Both the position numbers and the translations under genes were made by a program. From the UHGV virus genome UHGV-0004901: DNA of 38,194 nt; one strand, 5' to 3'. Shown piece after piece: positions 3,870 to 38,194 of this stretch (the stretch's first letter is position 1; each line of letters begins with the position of its first letter). The DNA is from a virus. The notes beneath the pieces are model-generated. The model was not told the origin of the DNA, did not search any database, and saw only the letters and a program-made list of their open reading frames with translations.

Positions 3870-4687
3870 ACGTACATATCCTGTTTACGTGCCCAGTCAG
3901 GGCGTTTAATAATTTCCACGCCGCCCCATTCATCATTGATGCGGCATTCGTGATAGGTATTCAGATCCCGGCGGAACAGAGCGTGCCCGGCATCGACATC
4001 CGGCGCATCCAGCTCGAACACGCGTACCGGATACCGACCACAATCAATGCTTTCGCTCACGGCAAGAAAGAAAAAACCATGCGACTGACCAGTAACCCTC
4101 ATCGCTCCTTCGCGGTACATTGCGTCCTGCACGTGGTAGCGGAATTCCTCGATGTGGCGTGCAAAACGGTCCATATCTGCAACCTTTTTCACGTCGACGA
4201 TCACGTTGTGCTCGTTCAGCCATTTGTCTGGACGAATGCGGCACAACTCACCAGTCTCTTCATCATTCCAGTACATTGATGCTTCGCAGTAACCAGGTGC
4301 TTCCAGCATCCAGCGTGCCGCCGGGTGAGCCATTGCGCTATCACGCATCAGCTCCAGTTTTCGCCACTGCTCTGCATCAAGTACCGAAATCCCCATATCC
4401 GCTACATCACGAATAAATGCCTCTTCGTCAGCTTTACCTTGTTTTGTCCGACGATCGAATTTCGGTGAAACGATGAAGCGTTTGTCAAACTCTCCAGGTT
4501 CCAGAAGCAGACAGTGCAGAGCAGTACCCATGTCCAGTGCAGACTTCTTCTCTTCGTCTTCCGGAGCAGCCTTCACCCATTTCAGAAGGGCAGGGTTCTT
4601 AGCCACCATATCTAGCTGCGACTTACTCACGCCGTCACCGGCGTGGTAGTCCTCGTTGCTGATATCGAAATAAATTCCCGGATTCAT
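3866..4687 (-). CDS. RecE-like PD-(D/E)XK exonuclease (partner of RecT)
   Basis: 273 aa; N-terminal DISNEDYHAG motif and downstream D..E.K-type motif (IVDVKKV); operon partner of recT. Confidence 0.75.
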   Translation of the reverse strand: MNPGIYFDISNEDYHAGDGVSKSQLDMVAKNPALLKWVKAAPEDEEKKSALDMGTALHCLLLEPGEFDKRFIVSPKFDRRTKQGKADEEAFIRDVADMGISVLDAEQWRKLELMRDSAMAHPAARWMLEAPGYCEASMYWNDEETGELCRIRPDKWLNEHNVIVDVKKVADMDRFARHIEEFRYHVQDAMYREGAMRVTGQSHGFFFLAVSESIDCGRYPVRVFELDAPDVDAGHALFRRDLNTYHECRINDEWGGVEIIKRPDWARKQDMYV

Positions 4688-5291: not shown

Positions 5292-5876
5292 TTATTGTTT
5301 GTTTTTTTCGTTCTGGTTGATGACAAATTCAATGTAACTTTCGATCTTTGCTTTCTCGGTTTCGGGTAACAATGCGTAGCGCGAGCGATCATAGTTGATG
5401 GTCGCAGGGTCGTGCGGGTGAATCAGTAATTCATAGCCGTGACGCCCGAATGCGGATGCAACATTCTCCAGGGTGGAAATGGAAACGCTGACCTCATTGT
5501 TTAACAGGCGGCTGATTGTCACCTGGGCGACGCCGGATGCGCGGTGTAGTTTTCCCTGCGTTGAAAGGTCGCGGCTTTCGCTCATCCAGCGTTCCAGGTT
5601 GTGAGCCGCCAGCTGACCTATATCACTCGGGCCGACAGGCTGAAAACCTTCCTGAGAAAGCGAGCGATCGATATCAAGCCAGTTACGGGGTTTATTGGCG
5701 GCAGCTTCAATTTTTCGCGCAACCTGGTCGCCGATAACCTTCTTGCCAAGAGCCCAGCGGTTTACCAGATTTGCCTGAGTTCCAAGTTTTTCTGCCATCC
5801 GCGTCTGAACACCATTGAATTCACGGTCGATCAAGTCGTTGAGATTTTGCCTGCGGACGTCCTGGATACTTTTCAT
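5292..5876 (-). CDS. Immunity repressor (CI-like) with two HTH domains and no S24 peptidase domain
   Basis: 194 aa; two XRE-type HTH-like segments (…TRMAEKLGTQANLVNRWALGKK… and …ASGVAQVTISRLLNNE…); divergent from the Cro-like gene across an operator cluster. Confidence 0.7.
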   Translation of the reverse strand: MKSIQDVRRQNLNDLIDREFNGVQTRMAEKLGTQANLVNRWALGKKVIGDQVARKIEAAANKPRNWLDIDRSLSQEGFQPVGPSDIGQLAAHNLERWMSESRDLSTQGKLHRASGVAQVTISRLLNNEVSVSISTLENVASAFGRHGYELLIHPHDPATINYDRSRYALLPETEKAKIESYIEFVINQNEKNKQ

Positions 5877-6627: not shown

Positions 6628-7467
6628 ATGAGCAGACATGCAACAGATTGGGCCTGGGAGACAGATCCAGGTAGCTCATCATTAAAGCTCATACTGCTCT
6701 CGATGGCTGACAGAGCCGATGAATATAACCTCTGCTACCCCAGCATAGAACGCCTCGTTAAAGACACTTGCCTGAATAAAAAAACCGTGCAGGCCGGGCT
6801 TATATCGCTCATGAAAATGGGGCTTATTTCAGATACCGGAGAGAGAAAGGGAGCGACAAAAAGAGTGCGGGTTTTCTCTCTTAATATAACCAAAAACGGG
6901 AACATTAAAGGCAACCGAGAGGGGGGCAATGAACCCGAAAACGGTAATGTTACCGAAAACGGGAATATACCCAAAAACGGGATGTTGAATGATCCCAAAA
7001 ACGGGATGTTGAATGATCCCAAAAACGGGATGTTGAATGATCCCAAAAACGGGATCCAGAACCAGTCATATAACCAGTCATTTAACCAAGAGAGGGAGAG
7101 CAGGACAAAAAACGGGGATTCTGTGCATCATGACCCCGGCGCAAACAACGCCGTGATGAATAACTTTGTTCCTCCTGGTGGGCCAGGGCAATTAGGCAAA
7201 TTTGTCATGCATGAACAATGGCAGCCATCAGATGACTTTCTTCGGAAAAGCTCATTGCAGGGGATCTACCTGGACAGTCTGCCAACGGCACAGGAACTTG
7301 CAGAGTTCAGAATTTACTGGATGGCTGAGGGTAAGGCATACCATCAGGCACAGTGGGAGCAGAAGCTGGCAAGGCGGCTGCAGATTAGCAGACAGAAGCA
7401 ATCAACATTACCTGATAACAACGTTCCGCACTGGAACAGCCCTGAAGCATGGGAGGATTTCTTGTGA
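6628..7467 (+). CDS. Replication initiator, lambda O-like (N-terminal winged-helix domain) with internal iterons
   Basis: N-terminal HTH-like domain; internal PKNGMLND repeats encoded by DNA iterons; followed by and overlapping a lambda P homolog. Confidence 0.75.
   Translation: MSRHATDWAWETDPGSSSLKLILLSMADRADEYNLCYPSIERLVKDTCLNKKTVQAGLISLMKMGLISDTGERKGATKRVRVFSLNITKNGNIKGNREGGNEPENGNVTENGNIPKNGMLNDPKNGMLNDPKNGMLNDPKNGIQNQSYNQSFNQERESRTKNGDSVHHDPGANNAVMNNFVPPGGPGQLGKFVMHEQWQPSDDFLRKSSLQGIYLDSLPTAQELAEFRIYWMAEGKAYHQAQWEQKLARRLQISRQKQSTLPDNNVPHWNSPEAWEDFL
6890..7060. repeat. Iteron array (putative origin of replication): 7 copies of CC(C/G)AAAACGG(G/T)A at 18-24 bp spacing, including 3 perfect 24-bp tandem copies
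   Basis: AAAACGG cores at 6893, 6938, 6956, 6974, 6998, 7022, 7046; followed by a second short direct repeat AACCAGTCAT(A/T)TAACCA (7059..7090). Confidence 0.7.
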
Positions 7468-8249
7468 ACAACGTTTTTACCGCGATACAAAACCGTGACG
7501 GAGAAGCCCTTTCTCGCATGTCAGGTTATGAGCATCAGTACACCAACAATGACAACGTGGTGAACATGTCAGCAGAGAGGCTTGTTGATGCCCTTTTCAA
7601 ACAGCTGAAACAACTGTTTCCGGCGGCAGTGGTAACCAACCTGAAGACGCCAGAGCAGGAAGTCGCTGCAAAACAGCAGTGGATTGCTGCGTTTGCCGAA
7701 GGTGGGATCCGAACCCGTGAACAGGTTTCTGCTGGTATGCGCCACGCCCGCGCCAGTGAATCTCCGTTCTGGCCGTCGCCAGGGCAATTCATCAAGTGGT
7801 GCAAAGACAGCAAGATGGTTCTTGGCGTCACCATTGACGATGTGATGGCGGAGTTTCACCGGTACAGCAAGGAAAAAAGTTTATATCCTGGTAGTCCCGA
7901 AAGATTCCCGTGGCGACATCCGGTTATGTACTGGGTCGTATGTGATACCCGCCGTGCAATGTATCAGCGCCAGCTTAGCGAGATTGAGGTTGAGAAACAT
8001 GCGCGCAGGCTGCTCGATGATTGGGCGAAAAAGGTGGCTTCTGGACAGCAGATACCCGATCCGGTGATCAGCATACAGGCAAAGCCAGAGCCCATGAGTA
8101 CACCTCCGGACACAGGGAGAGACGTTTACCATCCACCAGGGCGAAGTTTCGGATGCATGCCTAACGCCGCCACCCTTGGGGGAATAACACCGGCGCAGTG
8201 GCTGATGGAGGAATACAGGCGAGGAAAGGCGGCAGGATTTATCAAGTAA
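7449..8249 (+). CDS. Replication protein P-like (DnaB helicase loader)
   Basis: Clear similarity to lambda P recalled from memory: ...FPAAVVTNLKTPEQEVAAKQQWIAAFAEGGIRTREQVSAGMRHARASESPFWPSPGQFIKWCKD... versus lambda ...FPASL...RRQWVLAFRENGITTMEQVNAGMRVARRQNRPFLPSPGQFVAWCRE. Confidence 0.85.
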   Translation: MGGFLVNNVFTAIQNRDGEALSRMSGYEHQYTNNDNVVNMSAERLVDALFKQLKQLFPAAVVTNLKTPEQEVAAKQQWIAAFAEGGIRTREQVSAGMRHARASESPFWPSPGQFIKWCKDSKMVLGVTIDDVMAEFHRYSKEKSLYPGSPERFPWRHPVMYWVVCDTRRAMYQRQLSEIEVEKHARRLLDDWAKKVASGQQIPDPVISIQAKPEPMSTPPDTGRDVYHPPGRSFGCMPNAATLGGITPAQWLMEEYRRGKAAGFIK

Positions 8250-8366: not shown

Positions 8367-8711
8367 ATGAGAAAACAGATGCAGGCTCTTGGTCGACTCA
8401 AAACAGGCCAGATGAACAAAACAGAATCTGCGTATTGCCAGCATCTTGAGCAGCGTAAACGTGCAGGGGAAATCGCCTGGTATCGATTCGAGGGTATCAA
8501 GCTGCGGTTAGCTGATAACACGTTCTATACGCCAGATTTCGCTGTGATGCTCGCCACCGGAGAGATGGAACTGCACGAAGTGAAAGGTTTCTGGACCGAC
8601 GACGCCAGGGTGAAAACCAAAGTCGCCGCAGATCAGTATCCGTTCCGAATCATCGGGGTAACGGTTAAGCCAAAGAAAGCAGGTGGCGGATGGAAAATCG
8701 AAGAGTTCTGA
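8367..8711 (+). CDS. Small PD-(D/E)XK-like protein (DUF1064-like; possible nuclease/resolvase)
   Basis: 114 aa; ...YTPDFAVMLATGEMELHEVKG... fits a PD...E.K motif; family assignment from memory only. Confidence 0.45.
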   Translation: MRKQMQALGRLKTGQMNKTESAYCQHLEQRKRAGEIAWYRFEGIKLRLADNTFYTPDFAVMLATGEMELHEVKGFWTDDARVKTKVAADQYPFRIIGVTVKPKKAGGGWKIEEF

Positions 8712-8772
8712 ATCGACGATCTTTTTAGTTATCAATGTTATCAATAAGTTATGTGGATAAGCGAGGGTAAAG

Positions 8773-9252
8773 ATGGAAAGTAATATCAAAGGGTTAGTTG
8801 CCGCCGGGCATGAGATGGCTTCGGAACTGAAAGCAGAATGTGGTGCCGTTGATATGCGTAGTGTGGCAAAGCTGATCAGCGATTTGGCAACGCAACTGGA
8901 AGTGCAACTGGTGCGTGCTAATGCGCTGGCGGCGGAGAATGCGGGGCTGAAGTCTGGCGCTATGGACGAAATCAAGGTTATCAACCGTGGAGGGCAGGCA
9001 TATTGCGTAAAAGATGGAGTGCAAGTTAATCCCATGTATGCAAGAGGGTGGAATGACTATCGCGCAAAGTCTCTGCAATCAGACACCCCAGCCACCGATG
9101 CTTTCCTGGCTGAAATTGAACGCAAAGCAATCCGCAAGTTCATTAACAGCATTGAACACATCCTGCGTGACAAGTTGTCACCGTATGACACCGAAGAGAT
9201 GCTTGAGGCTATGCGTATTTTTCTGGAAGAACAGGGAGGTGAGCAAAAATGA
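8773..9252 (+). CDS. Hypothetical protein (nin-like region)
   Basis: 159-aa ORF with SD; no recognisable motif. Confidence 0.5.
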   Translation: MESNIKGLVAAGHEMASELKAECGAVDMRSVAKLISDLATQLEVQLVRANALAAENAGLKSGAMDEIKVINRGGQAYCVKDGVQVNPMYARGWNDYRAKSLQSDTPATDAFLAEIERKAIRKFINSIEHILRDKLSPYDTEEMLEAMRIFLEEQGGEQK

Positions 9253-17409: not shown

Positions 17410-18105
17410 ATGAATTTATTTGAGCGTTTGCTGTATCGCCGTCTTTGCAATGAGCAACCAGTCGATGGTGGAGCAGCTCCGGCTGCGTCAGAACCGTCAG
17501 CGCCTGCAGGTGATAACCCTGCTCCAGTTGGTGATCCATCACAACAGGAAGGTGATAAGCCACAACCTGTTGCTGATGGCGATAAACCTGCTGATGACAA
17601 AAAGCCTGAAAACGATAAGCAGGATGAAAAAAAGGACGGCGATAAACCAGAGGGTGCGCCTGAGAAGTACGAGTTTCAGGCAGCCGAAGGCGTAGAGCTG
17701 GATACAGAAGCGTTGAAGGAATTCGAGCCGGTGGCGCGAGAACTTAACCTGACCAACGAGCAAGCGCAAAAGCTGGTTGATGCTTATCCGAAGATTCTGG
17801 CAGGTGTTCAGCAGCGCCAGGCAGAAGCCTGGCAGAAAACAACCGAGCAGTGGGCTGCGGATGTAAAAGCTGACAAAGAAATCGGTGGCGACAAGTTGAT
17901 TTCTAACCTTAGCGCCGCACAGCGTGCGCTTGACCAGTTCGGGACACCTGAACTCAAAGAATATCTGAACACCACCGGACTGGGTAATCACCCTGATCTG
18001 GTCAAAACGTTCGTGAAAATCGGAAAGGCGATGTCTGAAGATGGCATGGTCACCGGTGGTAATGAAGGCCAGCGTAGTGCGGCCGAAGTGCTCTATGGCA
18101 AATAA
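17410..18105 (+). CDS. Scaffolding protein (putative)
   Basis: Acidic, low-complexity, helical-looking protein between portal and capsid; SD GGAG 6 nt upstream of ATG 17410. Confidence 0.55.
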   Translation: MNLFERLLYRRLCNEQPVDGGAAPAASEPSAPAGDNPAPVGDPSQQEGDKPQPVADGDKPADDKKPENDKQDEKKDGDKPEGAPEKYEFQAAEGVELDTEALKEFEPVARELNLTNEQAQKLVDAYPKILAGVQQRQAEAWQKTTEQWAADVKADKEIGGDKLISNLSAAQRALDQFGTPELKEYLNTTGLGNHPDLVKTFVKIGKAMSEDGMVTGGNEGQRSAAEVLYGK

Positions 18106-38117: not shown

Positions 38118-38194
38118 CTGTGCTGCTGTGCTGCTGTGCTGCTGTGCTGCTGTGCTGCTGTGCTGCTGTGCTGCTGTGCTGCTGTGCTGCTGTG
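38118..38194. repeat. Tandem octanucleotide repeat (CTGTGCTG)n, at least 9.6 copies, truncated by the window end
   Basis: Direct reading; perfect 8-bp periodicity to the last base of the window. Confidence 0.9.

Follow-up and report, generated by a model that had tools for sequence, protein, structure and literature searches.

A probable replication origin formed by iterons inside the initiator gene of a phiV10-like prophage

Virus genome UHGV-0004901 (38,194 bases, analysed over its whole length and called the window here) is a phiV10-like (Uetakevirus) genome, an E. coli prophage, and its predicted replication-initiator gene raises the question of whether a series of short direct repeats inside a reading frame is a signal in the DNA or only a repetitive piece of protein. 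An origin made of iterons within the initiator gene is the lambda paradigm, and the array in the window is another example of this known design. The preliminary description of this locus had likened it to lambda and proposed that the origin is marked by iterons lying in an O-like gene. Our comparisons of sequence lead us to conclude that the iterons at 6883-7054, together with the repeats and purine tract that follow at ~7058-7119, are very probably the replication origin of this phiV10-like prophage. The proposal gained strong support from conservation of the repeats in three reading frames, from a ~110-fold enrichment and from co-occurrence with one type of N-terminal domain (HTH_36), and its likeness to lambda was borne out by the resemblance of the iteron sequences, by the placement of an equivalent array in phage GF-2 and by the lambda-P-family gene that comes next. 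We read the repeats as a DNA signal because their reading frames vary and because they are strand-specific, tied to the N-domain and present in 3 to 9 copies.

Searching the + strand for CCSAAAACGGKA with at most one mismatch gave seven matches, starting at 6890, 6935, 6953, 6971, 6995, 7019 and 7043, and no further match on either strand of the 38,194 bases. Dinucleotide-preserving shuffles yielded a mean of 0.42 matches and a maximum of 3, confirming that the array at 6890-7054 is real and far above chance. The seven copies had been correctly counted in the preliminary description, but its consensus, CC(C/G)AAAACGG(G/T)A, fails at the third position and fits only two copies exactly; that base is A in 5 of the 7, and CC(A/G)AAAACGG(G/T)A is the better consensus. 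Its spacing of 18-24 bp holds for copies 2-7 and not for copy 1, which is set apart from the others (spacings of 45, 18, 18, 24, 24 and 24 bp). The perfect 24-bp tandem units and the second short direct repeat that it had placed after the array were both recovered by Tandem Repeats Finder (TRF), the former as CCCAAAAACGGGATGTTGAATGAT x3.6 at 100% identity (6970-7055) and the latter as a 12-bp unit, AACCAGTCATAT x2.4 (7060-7088); an 18-bp unit x2.8 was found at 6933-6982. The full conserved unit is longer than 12 bp, spanning about 19 bp as AAT-N3-(C)CC-N-AAAACGG-N-A, and is written out for the window as gATCCCAAAAACGGGATg (also given as gATCCCAAAAACGGGAT). Its dyad arms, ATCCC/GGGAT, are complete in three copies (iterons 5-7), and no other notable inverted repeats were found around the array. 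Within the open reading frame (ORF) at 6628-7467 (+) the array encodes the peptide ...IPKNGMLNDPKNGMLNDPKNGMLNDPKNGIQNQSYNQSFNQ... and occupies codons 86-143, between the HTH_36 domain (18-67) and the DnaT domain (192-260). The seven copies, spaced near two helical turns, have the layout of a lambda-type in-gene origin, for which three or four direct repeats or more between the two domains of the initiator are expected.

Conservation across species was measured at the level of DNA. Eighty loci of different species were collected from genome DNA with a profile of the N-domain, of which 70 were usable; the core was defined as CCNAAAA[ACT]GG and the zone as the 345 bp after the N-domain. The core occurred 130 times in the zone (5.38 per kb), compared to 10 times outside it (0.049 per kb) and once on the opposite strand, a strand-specific enrichment of ~110-fold just after the N-domain. 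All three reading frames were used (93, 26 and 11 occurrences), yielding the peptides PKNG, xQKR and PKTx, and at least two frames were used in 24 loci. For example, CCC AAA AAC GGG is read as P-K-N-G in the window, A CCC AAA AAC GG as T-Q-K-R in the phages GF-2 and PPompW, and GAC CCA AAA ACG GAA as D-P-K-T-E in phage Her. With a single DNA word translated in three frames, both inside one gene and from gene to gene, it is not the peptide that is conserved. The repeats are conserved as DNA independently of frame, as in a lambda-type origin, a pattern that points to selection on a DNA signal rather than on the protein repeat. Covariation between the flanks of the unit was seen at pair -3/+3, where 0.44 of the pairs were complementary compared to 0.26 after permutation (reached in 0 of 2000 permutations), and at pair -5/+5 (0.39 compared to 0.26; 3 of 2000).

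The strict core was absent in 33 loci; in those inspected, its position is taken by variant repeats, namely GTCCCAACGTTGGGAC and related words in Acinetobacter, GTACCAAAAGTGGTAC, and CCGCCGGAAACGG in a Desulfovibrionaceae genome. The iteron variants of the family comprise CCCAAAAACGG, GTCCCAACGTTGGGAC, GTACCAAAAGTGGTAC and CCGGAAACGG. In two Acinetobacter spp. loci (L123 and L113, ~1800-1945), the last repeat before a GAATCT-periodic element is the perfect 16-bp palindrome GTCCCAACGTTGGGAC; the copies ahead of it are half-sites, and the iterons here seem to be a family variant with a specificity of their own. When proteins were searched with the N-domain profile, every hit was short or truncated (163 residues or fewer), and the TQKR and PKNG variants could be seen among them. 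Many database proteins of the HTH_36 initiator family stem from short contigs and are cut off within the repeats, which suggests that assemblies often break at iteron arrays.

Close relatives differ in the number of copies while the bases of the unit stay fixed. A scan of viral contigs, in which every hit was a near-identical locus, provided 80 such relatives with N-domains 99-100% identical. Their strict iterons number 3 to 9, with a mode of 6 (59 of the 80 loci) and the window's 7 in 6 loci, and are spaced at 18, 24 or 45 bp, one copy lying 45 bp ahead of the next in every locus (80/80). Across the 475 units there is no variation in AAT at -7 to -5, CC, AAAA, GG and A at +11, 470 units have C ahead of GG, and the nonsynonymous differences (T/P, E/K, V/I) sit on low-information positions of the DNA. 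Iteron number also varies among lambda-type in-gene origins, with 4 in lambda and 6 in the Stx phages, such as 933W and P27 (PMC7466680), which shows that a change in copy number is tolerated. Unlike the window, the Stx phages have true orthologues of lambda O and P with lambda-type iterons.

The array is linked to the N-domain of the initiator. In a translated search, the initiators of GF-2 (Edwardsiella), Her (Vibrio) and AP22 (Acinetobacter) shared only the N-terminal ~148 residues with the window protein. GF-2 (unit AATGATCCCAAAATTGGGATTTTG x2.8) and Her (unit CCGAAAACGGTACTTTGAATAGGC x4.6) each have a perfect 24-bp tandem at the same place, followed by a 12-13-bp repeat; TRF detected no array in AP22, whose linker nevertheless has dispersed copies of the same motif. 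The motif is thus present with an HTH_36 N-domain in GF-2, Her, AP22 and PPompW, while their C-halves or neighbouring loaders differ: downstream of the N-domain GF-2 has a lambda-O-like C-half and a P gene, Her has a different C-half, and the gene next to the AP22 initiator encodes a DnaB-like helicase. The initiators of SPN1S, TL-2011b and Tyrion, which share the DnaT-like C-domain and have other N-domains, gave 0 motif matches. Among the sequences compared, the motif tracks the HTH_36 N-domain and not the C-domain. The linkers of these three carry repeats of other kinds, which may be origin signals of their own: GGATCAG x3 at 1128-1150 in Tyrion (an Enterobacter phage, L170), a run of the 5-bp unit AGAGA at 1105-1127 in SPN1S (L168), and a 19-bp direct repeat at 840-858 and 1049-1067, 209 bp apart, in TL-2011b (L169).

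A natural exchange of parts is seen in GF-2 (L002, 1501-2343). Residues 137-280 of its initiator are 62% identical to residues 156-299 of lambda O (E 2e-67), and the N-terminal 136 residues have no match to lambda O, making it a chimera of an HTH_36 N-domain with CCCAAAATTGGG iterons (unit gATCCCAAAATTGGGAT) and a lambda-O C-half. Because both precede a lambda-type C-domain, the N-domain and array of GF-2 take the place of lambda's N-domain and iterons. Rightward of its iterons, GF-2 DNA (GAGAATTCTGACGAATCCTC) is similar to the lambda origin's right arm.

The stretch downstream of the array is also kept as DNA. The second repeat reads CAGAACCAGTCATATAACCAGTCATTTAACCAAG in the window and CAGAACCAGTCATTAGAACCAGTCATAGAACCAAG in Vibrio phage Her, where a 13-bp period puts copy 2 in another frame (EPVI compared to NQS), and a periodic GAAYC element comes after the last iteron in the majority of 41 diverse loci. 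The A-over-T skew of 6885-7124 lies at the 99.95th percentile of the window, and the A>T skew maximum is at 6888; this strand asymmetry is more striking than A/T richness. Cumulative GC skew over the whole window reaches its minimum at 6786, ~100 bp left of the array, a position consistent with the origin reading, and not in the region of divergent promoters at about 5.9-6.0 kb. A possible eighth iteron inside the polypurine tract, ACAAAAAACGGGGA at ~7106-7119, is degenerate and was rejected because this word varies freely among close relatives, in which its TKNG codons become TKSG, TKTG, TKAG or TKTR.

Comparison with known systems places the array closest to lambda in layout and apart from it in protein families. 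The lambda record annotates four iterons, ATCCCTCAAAACGAGGGA, ATCCCCTAAAACGAGGGA, ATCCCTCAAATTGGGGGA and ATCCCTCAAAACAGGGGG, in frames 0, 2, 2 and 1 of O. The window unit gATCCCAAAAACGGGAT resembles the lambda iterons ATCCCTCAAAACGAGGGA and ATCCCTCAAATTGGGGGAT, sharing with them ATCCC...AAAAC...GGGAT (the arms and an A-rich centre). Both arrays lie inside the initiator gene between the parts coding for the N- and C-domains, have iterons at a spacing of ~18-24 bp in several frames, continue on the same side into a purine-rich stretch containing repeats, and are followed directly downstream by a P-family loader gene. The window differs in having a centre 3 bp shorter (ATCCC-AAAAAC-GGGAT compared to ATCCC-TCAAAACGA-GGGAT), seven copies instead of four, a flank only mildly A/T-rich, an HTH_36 N-domain instead of Phage_rep_O, and a DnaT-like C-domain instead of that of lambda O. 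P22 is similar in that its record annotates a rep_origin inside the initiator gene 18, with direct repeats of the TCGGTAAAAC type followed by GAATCAGTCA and then short A-rich repeats; its gp18 is a Phage_rep_O protein, the iteron sequence is different from that of the window, and the partner is a DnaB-type helicase (gene 12) rather than a P-type loader.

Outside phages, the RepA_N-family plasmid initiators of Gram-positive bacteria (such as pSK41 and pTZ2162) have iterons centrally within rep, and as proposed for the window a winged-helix N-domain reads repeats inside its own gene. Hosts and partner proteins are other than those of the window; the structure of the pTZ2162-type RepA N-terminal domain (4pql) was among the Foldseek matches at rank 19, a generic resemblance of fold, and the window protein had no Pfam RepA_N match at E up to 0.01. 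A closer counterpart in protein architecture is the DopC/DopE pair of Cellvibrionales and some Oceanospirillales, in which HTH_36 and a DnaT C-terminal motif are followed by a lambda-P-derived protein (PMC5509034). As would be expected of a phage relative of this pair, the window combines an HTH_36 N-domain, a DnaT C-domain and an adjacent PF06992 gene. The dopC and dopE genes are chromosomal and domesticated, whereas the pair in the window is phage-borne with a full iteron array; the published study of the pair detected neither iteron-like sequences nor a skew minimum at dopC (PMC5509034). The window holds the phage-borne counterpart, with iterons kept, of a domesticated pair that lost them.

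Could the repeats matter only to the protein, as a low-complexity, slippage-prone linker of PKNGMLND repeats whose DNA has no cis-acting role? Perfect tandem units in varying number are what replication slippage would give, the confidence of the N-domain model drops where the repeat-encoded stretch starts, and the linker in the single-sequence model has no secondary structure and low confidence throughout. Such a linker would hardly explain why the same DNA word is read as PKNG, TQKR and PKTE, why the motif is strand-specific and so strongly enriched (~110-fold), why nonsynonymous changes (T/P, E/K) fall at uninformative positions of units whose core bases never vary (475 units), or why the second repeat is kept in a different frame in Her, and we regard it as very improbable. 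If the repeats are a DNA signal, the motif might be bound by a factor other than the initiator's own N-domain, encoded either by the host or elsewhere in the phage. Nucleoid proteins could be drawn to so generic an A-tract core, and the N-domain is a presumed reader; yet the motif is found wherever the N-domain occurs, in hosts from Enterobacterales to Sphingomonadales, is lacking in initiators with another N-domain in its place, and takes variant forms at the same position where the N-domain itself is variant, which makes an outside factor highly improbable.

A bound site may also serve control rather than initiation. The initiator could occupy the repeats to regulate its own gene, control copy number or exclude related phages, with synthesis starting elsewhere, for instance at 8720-8770. 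Iterons in plasmids serve in copy control too, the unwinding element beside the array is weak, and 8728-8760 has TTATCAATG, TTATCAATA and a perfect TTATCCACA in sequence of ~33% GC. We nevertheless consider this unlikely, given that the equivalent in-gene arrays of lambda and P22 are origins (record annotations; PMC7466680), that throughout the family the last iteron is succeeded by a conserved repeat element of 12-13 bp, that the GF-2 array stands directly ahead of lambda-like right-arm sequence, and that one perfect DnaA box is within chance, the degenerate pattern being expected to match 3.6 times. No DnaA boxes were found in or near the array, and the sole perfect one in the window is at 8752-8760. 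The stretch at 8720-8770 is A/T-rich and intergenic, between a DUF1064 gene (8367-8711) and an ORF at 8773-9252, and consists of a 9-bp tandem (TTATCAATG / TTATCAATA) and then the DnaA box TTATCCACA on the minus strand; it could be a DnaA-box cluster or a promoter.

Several observations weigh against the array being an origin of the lambda type. It has no strong A/T-rich unwinding element beside it. The A/T-rich stretch of the preliminary description is present but weak, with a GC content of 40% at 7056-7090 compared to 49% for the whole window. In nearest-neighbour duplex instability, the 40 bp from 7060 reach only the 89th percentile and the surroundings of the array span the 89th-97th, whereas the A/T-rich regions of lambda and P22 exceed the 99.7th percentile of their own loci. 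The GC-skew analysis that had been suggested as a check did place a minimum near the array, but phage GC skew also mirrors the direction of transcription and is confounded by it. The covariation of the dyad is partial, the other three of the five flank pairs not being significant, and is uncontrolled for kinship. In the openly searchable literature we found no binding or replication experiment on phiV10-type phages, and no description of a phiV10 or epsilon15 origin or of this iteron family.

The kinship of the protein is a further point on this side, and the name O-like that it had been given holds for function and architecture and not for membership of Phage_rep_O. Pfam assigned the window protein only HTH_36 and DnaT, with no match to Phage_rep_O (PF04492), a family that P22 gp18 matches with 129.5 bits and to which lambda O likewise belongs, rather than to HTH_36. 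BLASTP detected no similarity between the window protein and P22 gp18. An hhalign comparison of the window N-domain with that of lambda O/P22 gp18, covering the helix-turn-helix and wing regions, was shallow and marginal (probability 58%, E 1e-4). DopC, an HTH_36 protein of the same architecture, was homologous to lambda O only at its N-terminus in an HHpred-based analysis (PMC5509034, Brezellec et al.), and the window N-domain is likely homologous to that of lambda O.

By analogy, we infer initiator binding, unwinding, helicase loading and origin activity for the array. After induction, rightward early transcription would supply the initiator, as in lambda, and dimers of it would occupy the partly dyad-symmetric, A-tract-containing iterons through their winged-helix N-domains. 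The bound DNA would wrap into an O-some-like complex, and the strain of wrapping would open the adjacent 12-bp repeats and purine-rich stretch. The DnaT-like C-domain, whose presumed role is single-stranded DNA binding and/or contact with the loader, would then hold the single strand and/or dock the lambda-P-like protein of the next gene, which would deliver the host DnaB helicase.

If so, the locus offers a testable candidate origin for the phiV10-type (Uetakevirus) phages, which are used as O157 reporter and typing phages, and the pair of origin and initiator could be useful for phage-derived replicons and for interpreting escape replication after induction. It would also illustrate clearly how a signal that acts in cis as DNA can be overprinted on a gene whatever the reading frame. 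For many prophages, origins could be predicted by looking just past an HTH_36 domain for an array of CCNAAAACGG on one strand. The most interesting by-product is that one 10-bp core is conserved from Enterobacterales to Sphingomonadales.

A broader reading, which we put forward tentatively as possible, is that an ancient origin cassette, portable and with interchangeable C-domains, is made up of the HTH_36 N-domain and its CCCAAAAACGG iterons, the site being a shortened relative of the lambda iteron. The combination occurs in prophages of Gamma-, Beta- and Alphaproteobacteria, with a variant form in Desulfovibrionaceae; the C-domains joined to the N-domain are DnaT-like, of the lambda-O-C type or others, and the next genes encode lambda-P-type loaders or a DnaB-type helicase. 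Were this true, the protein and its site would have been conserved jointly in two Pfam families, and a single short pattern in the DNA would allow origins to be predicted in thousands of prophages; the odd PKNG/TQKR linkers and the assembly breaks in these genes would be explained as well.

The coordinates of the array and of the genes around it are given in Table 1. In the initiator, Pfam places HTH_36 at residues 18-67 (E 1.9e-10) and the DnaT DNA-binding domain (PF17948) at residues 192-260 (E 1.2e-15). It is 97.4% identical to phiV10 gp43, a 'replication initiation protein', which is followed by gp44, 'putative replication protein p'; no origin is annotated in the corresponding part of the phiV10 record. 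The array region was found in 421 of 5426 complete E. coli genomes, where the only label is DnaT-like protein. As in a lambda-type origin, the helicase-loader gene lies immediately 3' of the initiator gene, and the phiV10 annotation starts it at an ATGA overlapping the initiator stop (~7464). A repressor-like gene with two helix-turn-helix motifs lies upstream on the opposite strand (5292-5876).

Table 1. Positions in the window of the initiator and loader genes, the iterons and the elements that follow them.
Feature	Position	Strand	Remark
Replication-initiator gene, 279 aa	6628..7467	+	HTH_36 N-domain, repeat-encoded linker, DnaT-like C-domain
N-terminal winged-helix domain coding part, residues 1-87	6628..6888	+	presumed iteron reader
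Iteron 1, AATATAACCAAAAACGGGA	6883..6901	+	motif search; 45 bp ahead of iteron 2
Iteron 2, AATGAACCCGAAAACGGTA	6928..6946	+	motif search and TRF
Iteron 3, AATGTTACCGAAAACGGGA	6946..6964	+	motif search and TRF
Iteron 4, AATATACCCAAAAACGGGA	6964..6982	+	first of the perfect 24-bp tandem block
Iteron 5, AATGATCCCAAAAACGGGA	6988..7006	+	dyad arms ATCCC/GGGAT
Iteron 6, AATGATCCCAAAAACGGGA	7012..7030	+	motif search and TRF
Iteron 7, AATGATCCCAAAAACGGGA	7036..7054	+	last copy; conserved CAGAACC junction next
Second element CAGAACCAGTCATATAACCAGTCATTTAACCAAGAG, about three 12-bp repeats of (G/A)AACC	7058..7093	+	TRF; candidate start of the unwinding region
Polypurine A-rich tract, 83% purine, 3% T	7085..7119	+ (coding strand)	composition
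DnaT-like C-terminal domain coding part, residues 192-260	7201..7407	+	Pfam PF17948
Lambda-P-family helicase-loader gene	7449..8249	+	Pfam Phage_lambda_P, E 6.3e-57

The predicted structure of the N-domain agrees with a DNA-binding fold. An AlphaFold2 model of its 97 residues, built on a 48-sequence alignment, had a pLDDT of 89 and a pTM of 0.80 and the winged-helix topology H-H-(short strand)-H-H-strand-strand (H, helix), its confidence falling in the last residues, at the start of the repeat-encoded stretch. Foldseek searches with this domain returned generic winged-helix DNA binders (MarR, Fur/PerR, BlaI), all at E of at least 2e-3, and no specific initiator family. The single-sequence AlphaFold2 model of the whole protein was uninformative (mean pLDDT 38).

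Other repeats were observed in the window away from the initiator gene. A perfect 8-bp tandem, CTGTGCTG x9.6, occupies 38118-38194 and runs past the window end; upstream of it are a very A/T-rich stretch and a GC-stem hairpin, and the last 495 bases of the window had no megablast match in the phage collection. Lastly, TRF reported two short 18-bp tandem repeats of ~2 copies and ~80% identity, at 4280-4318 and 17571-17608.

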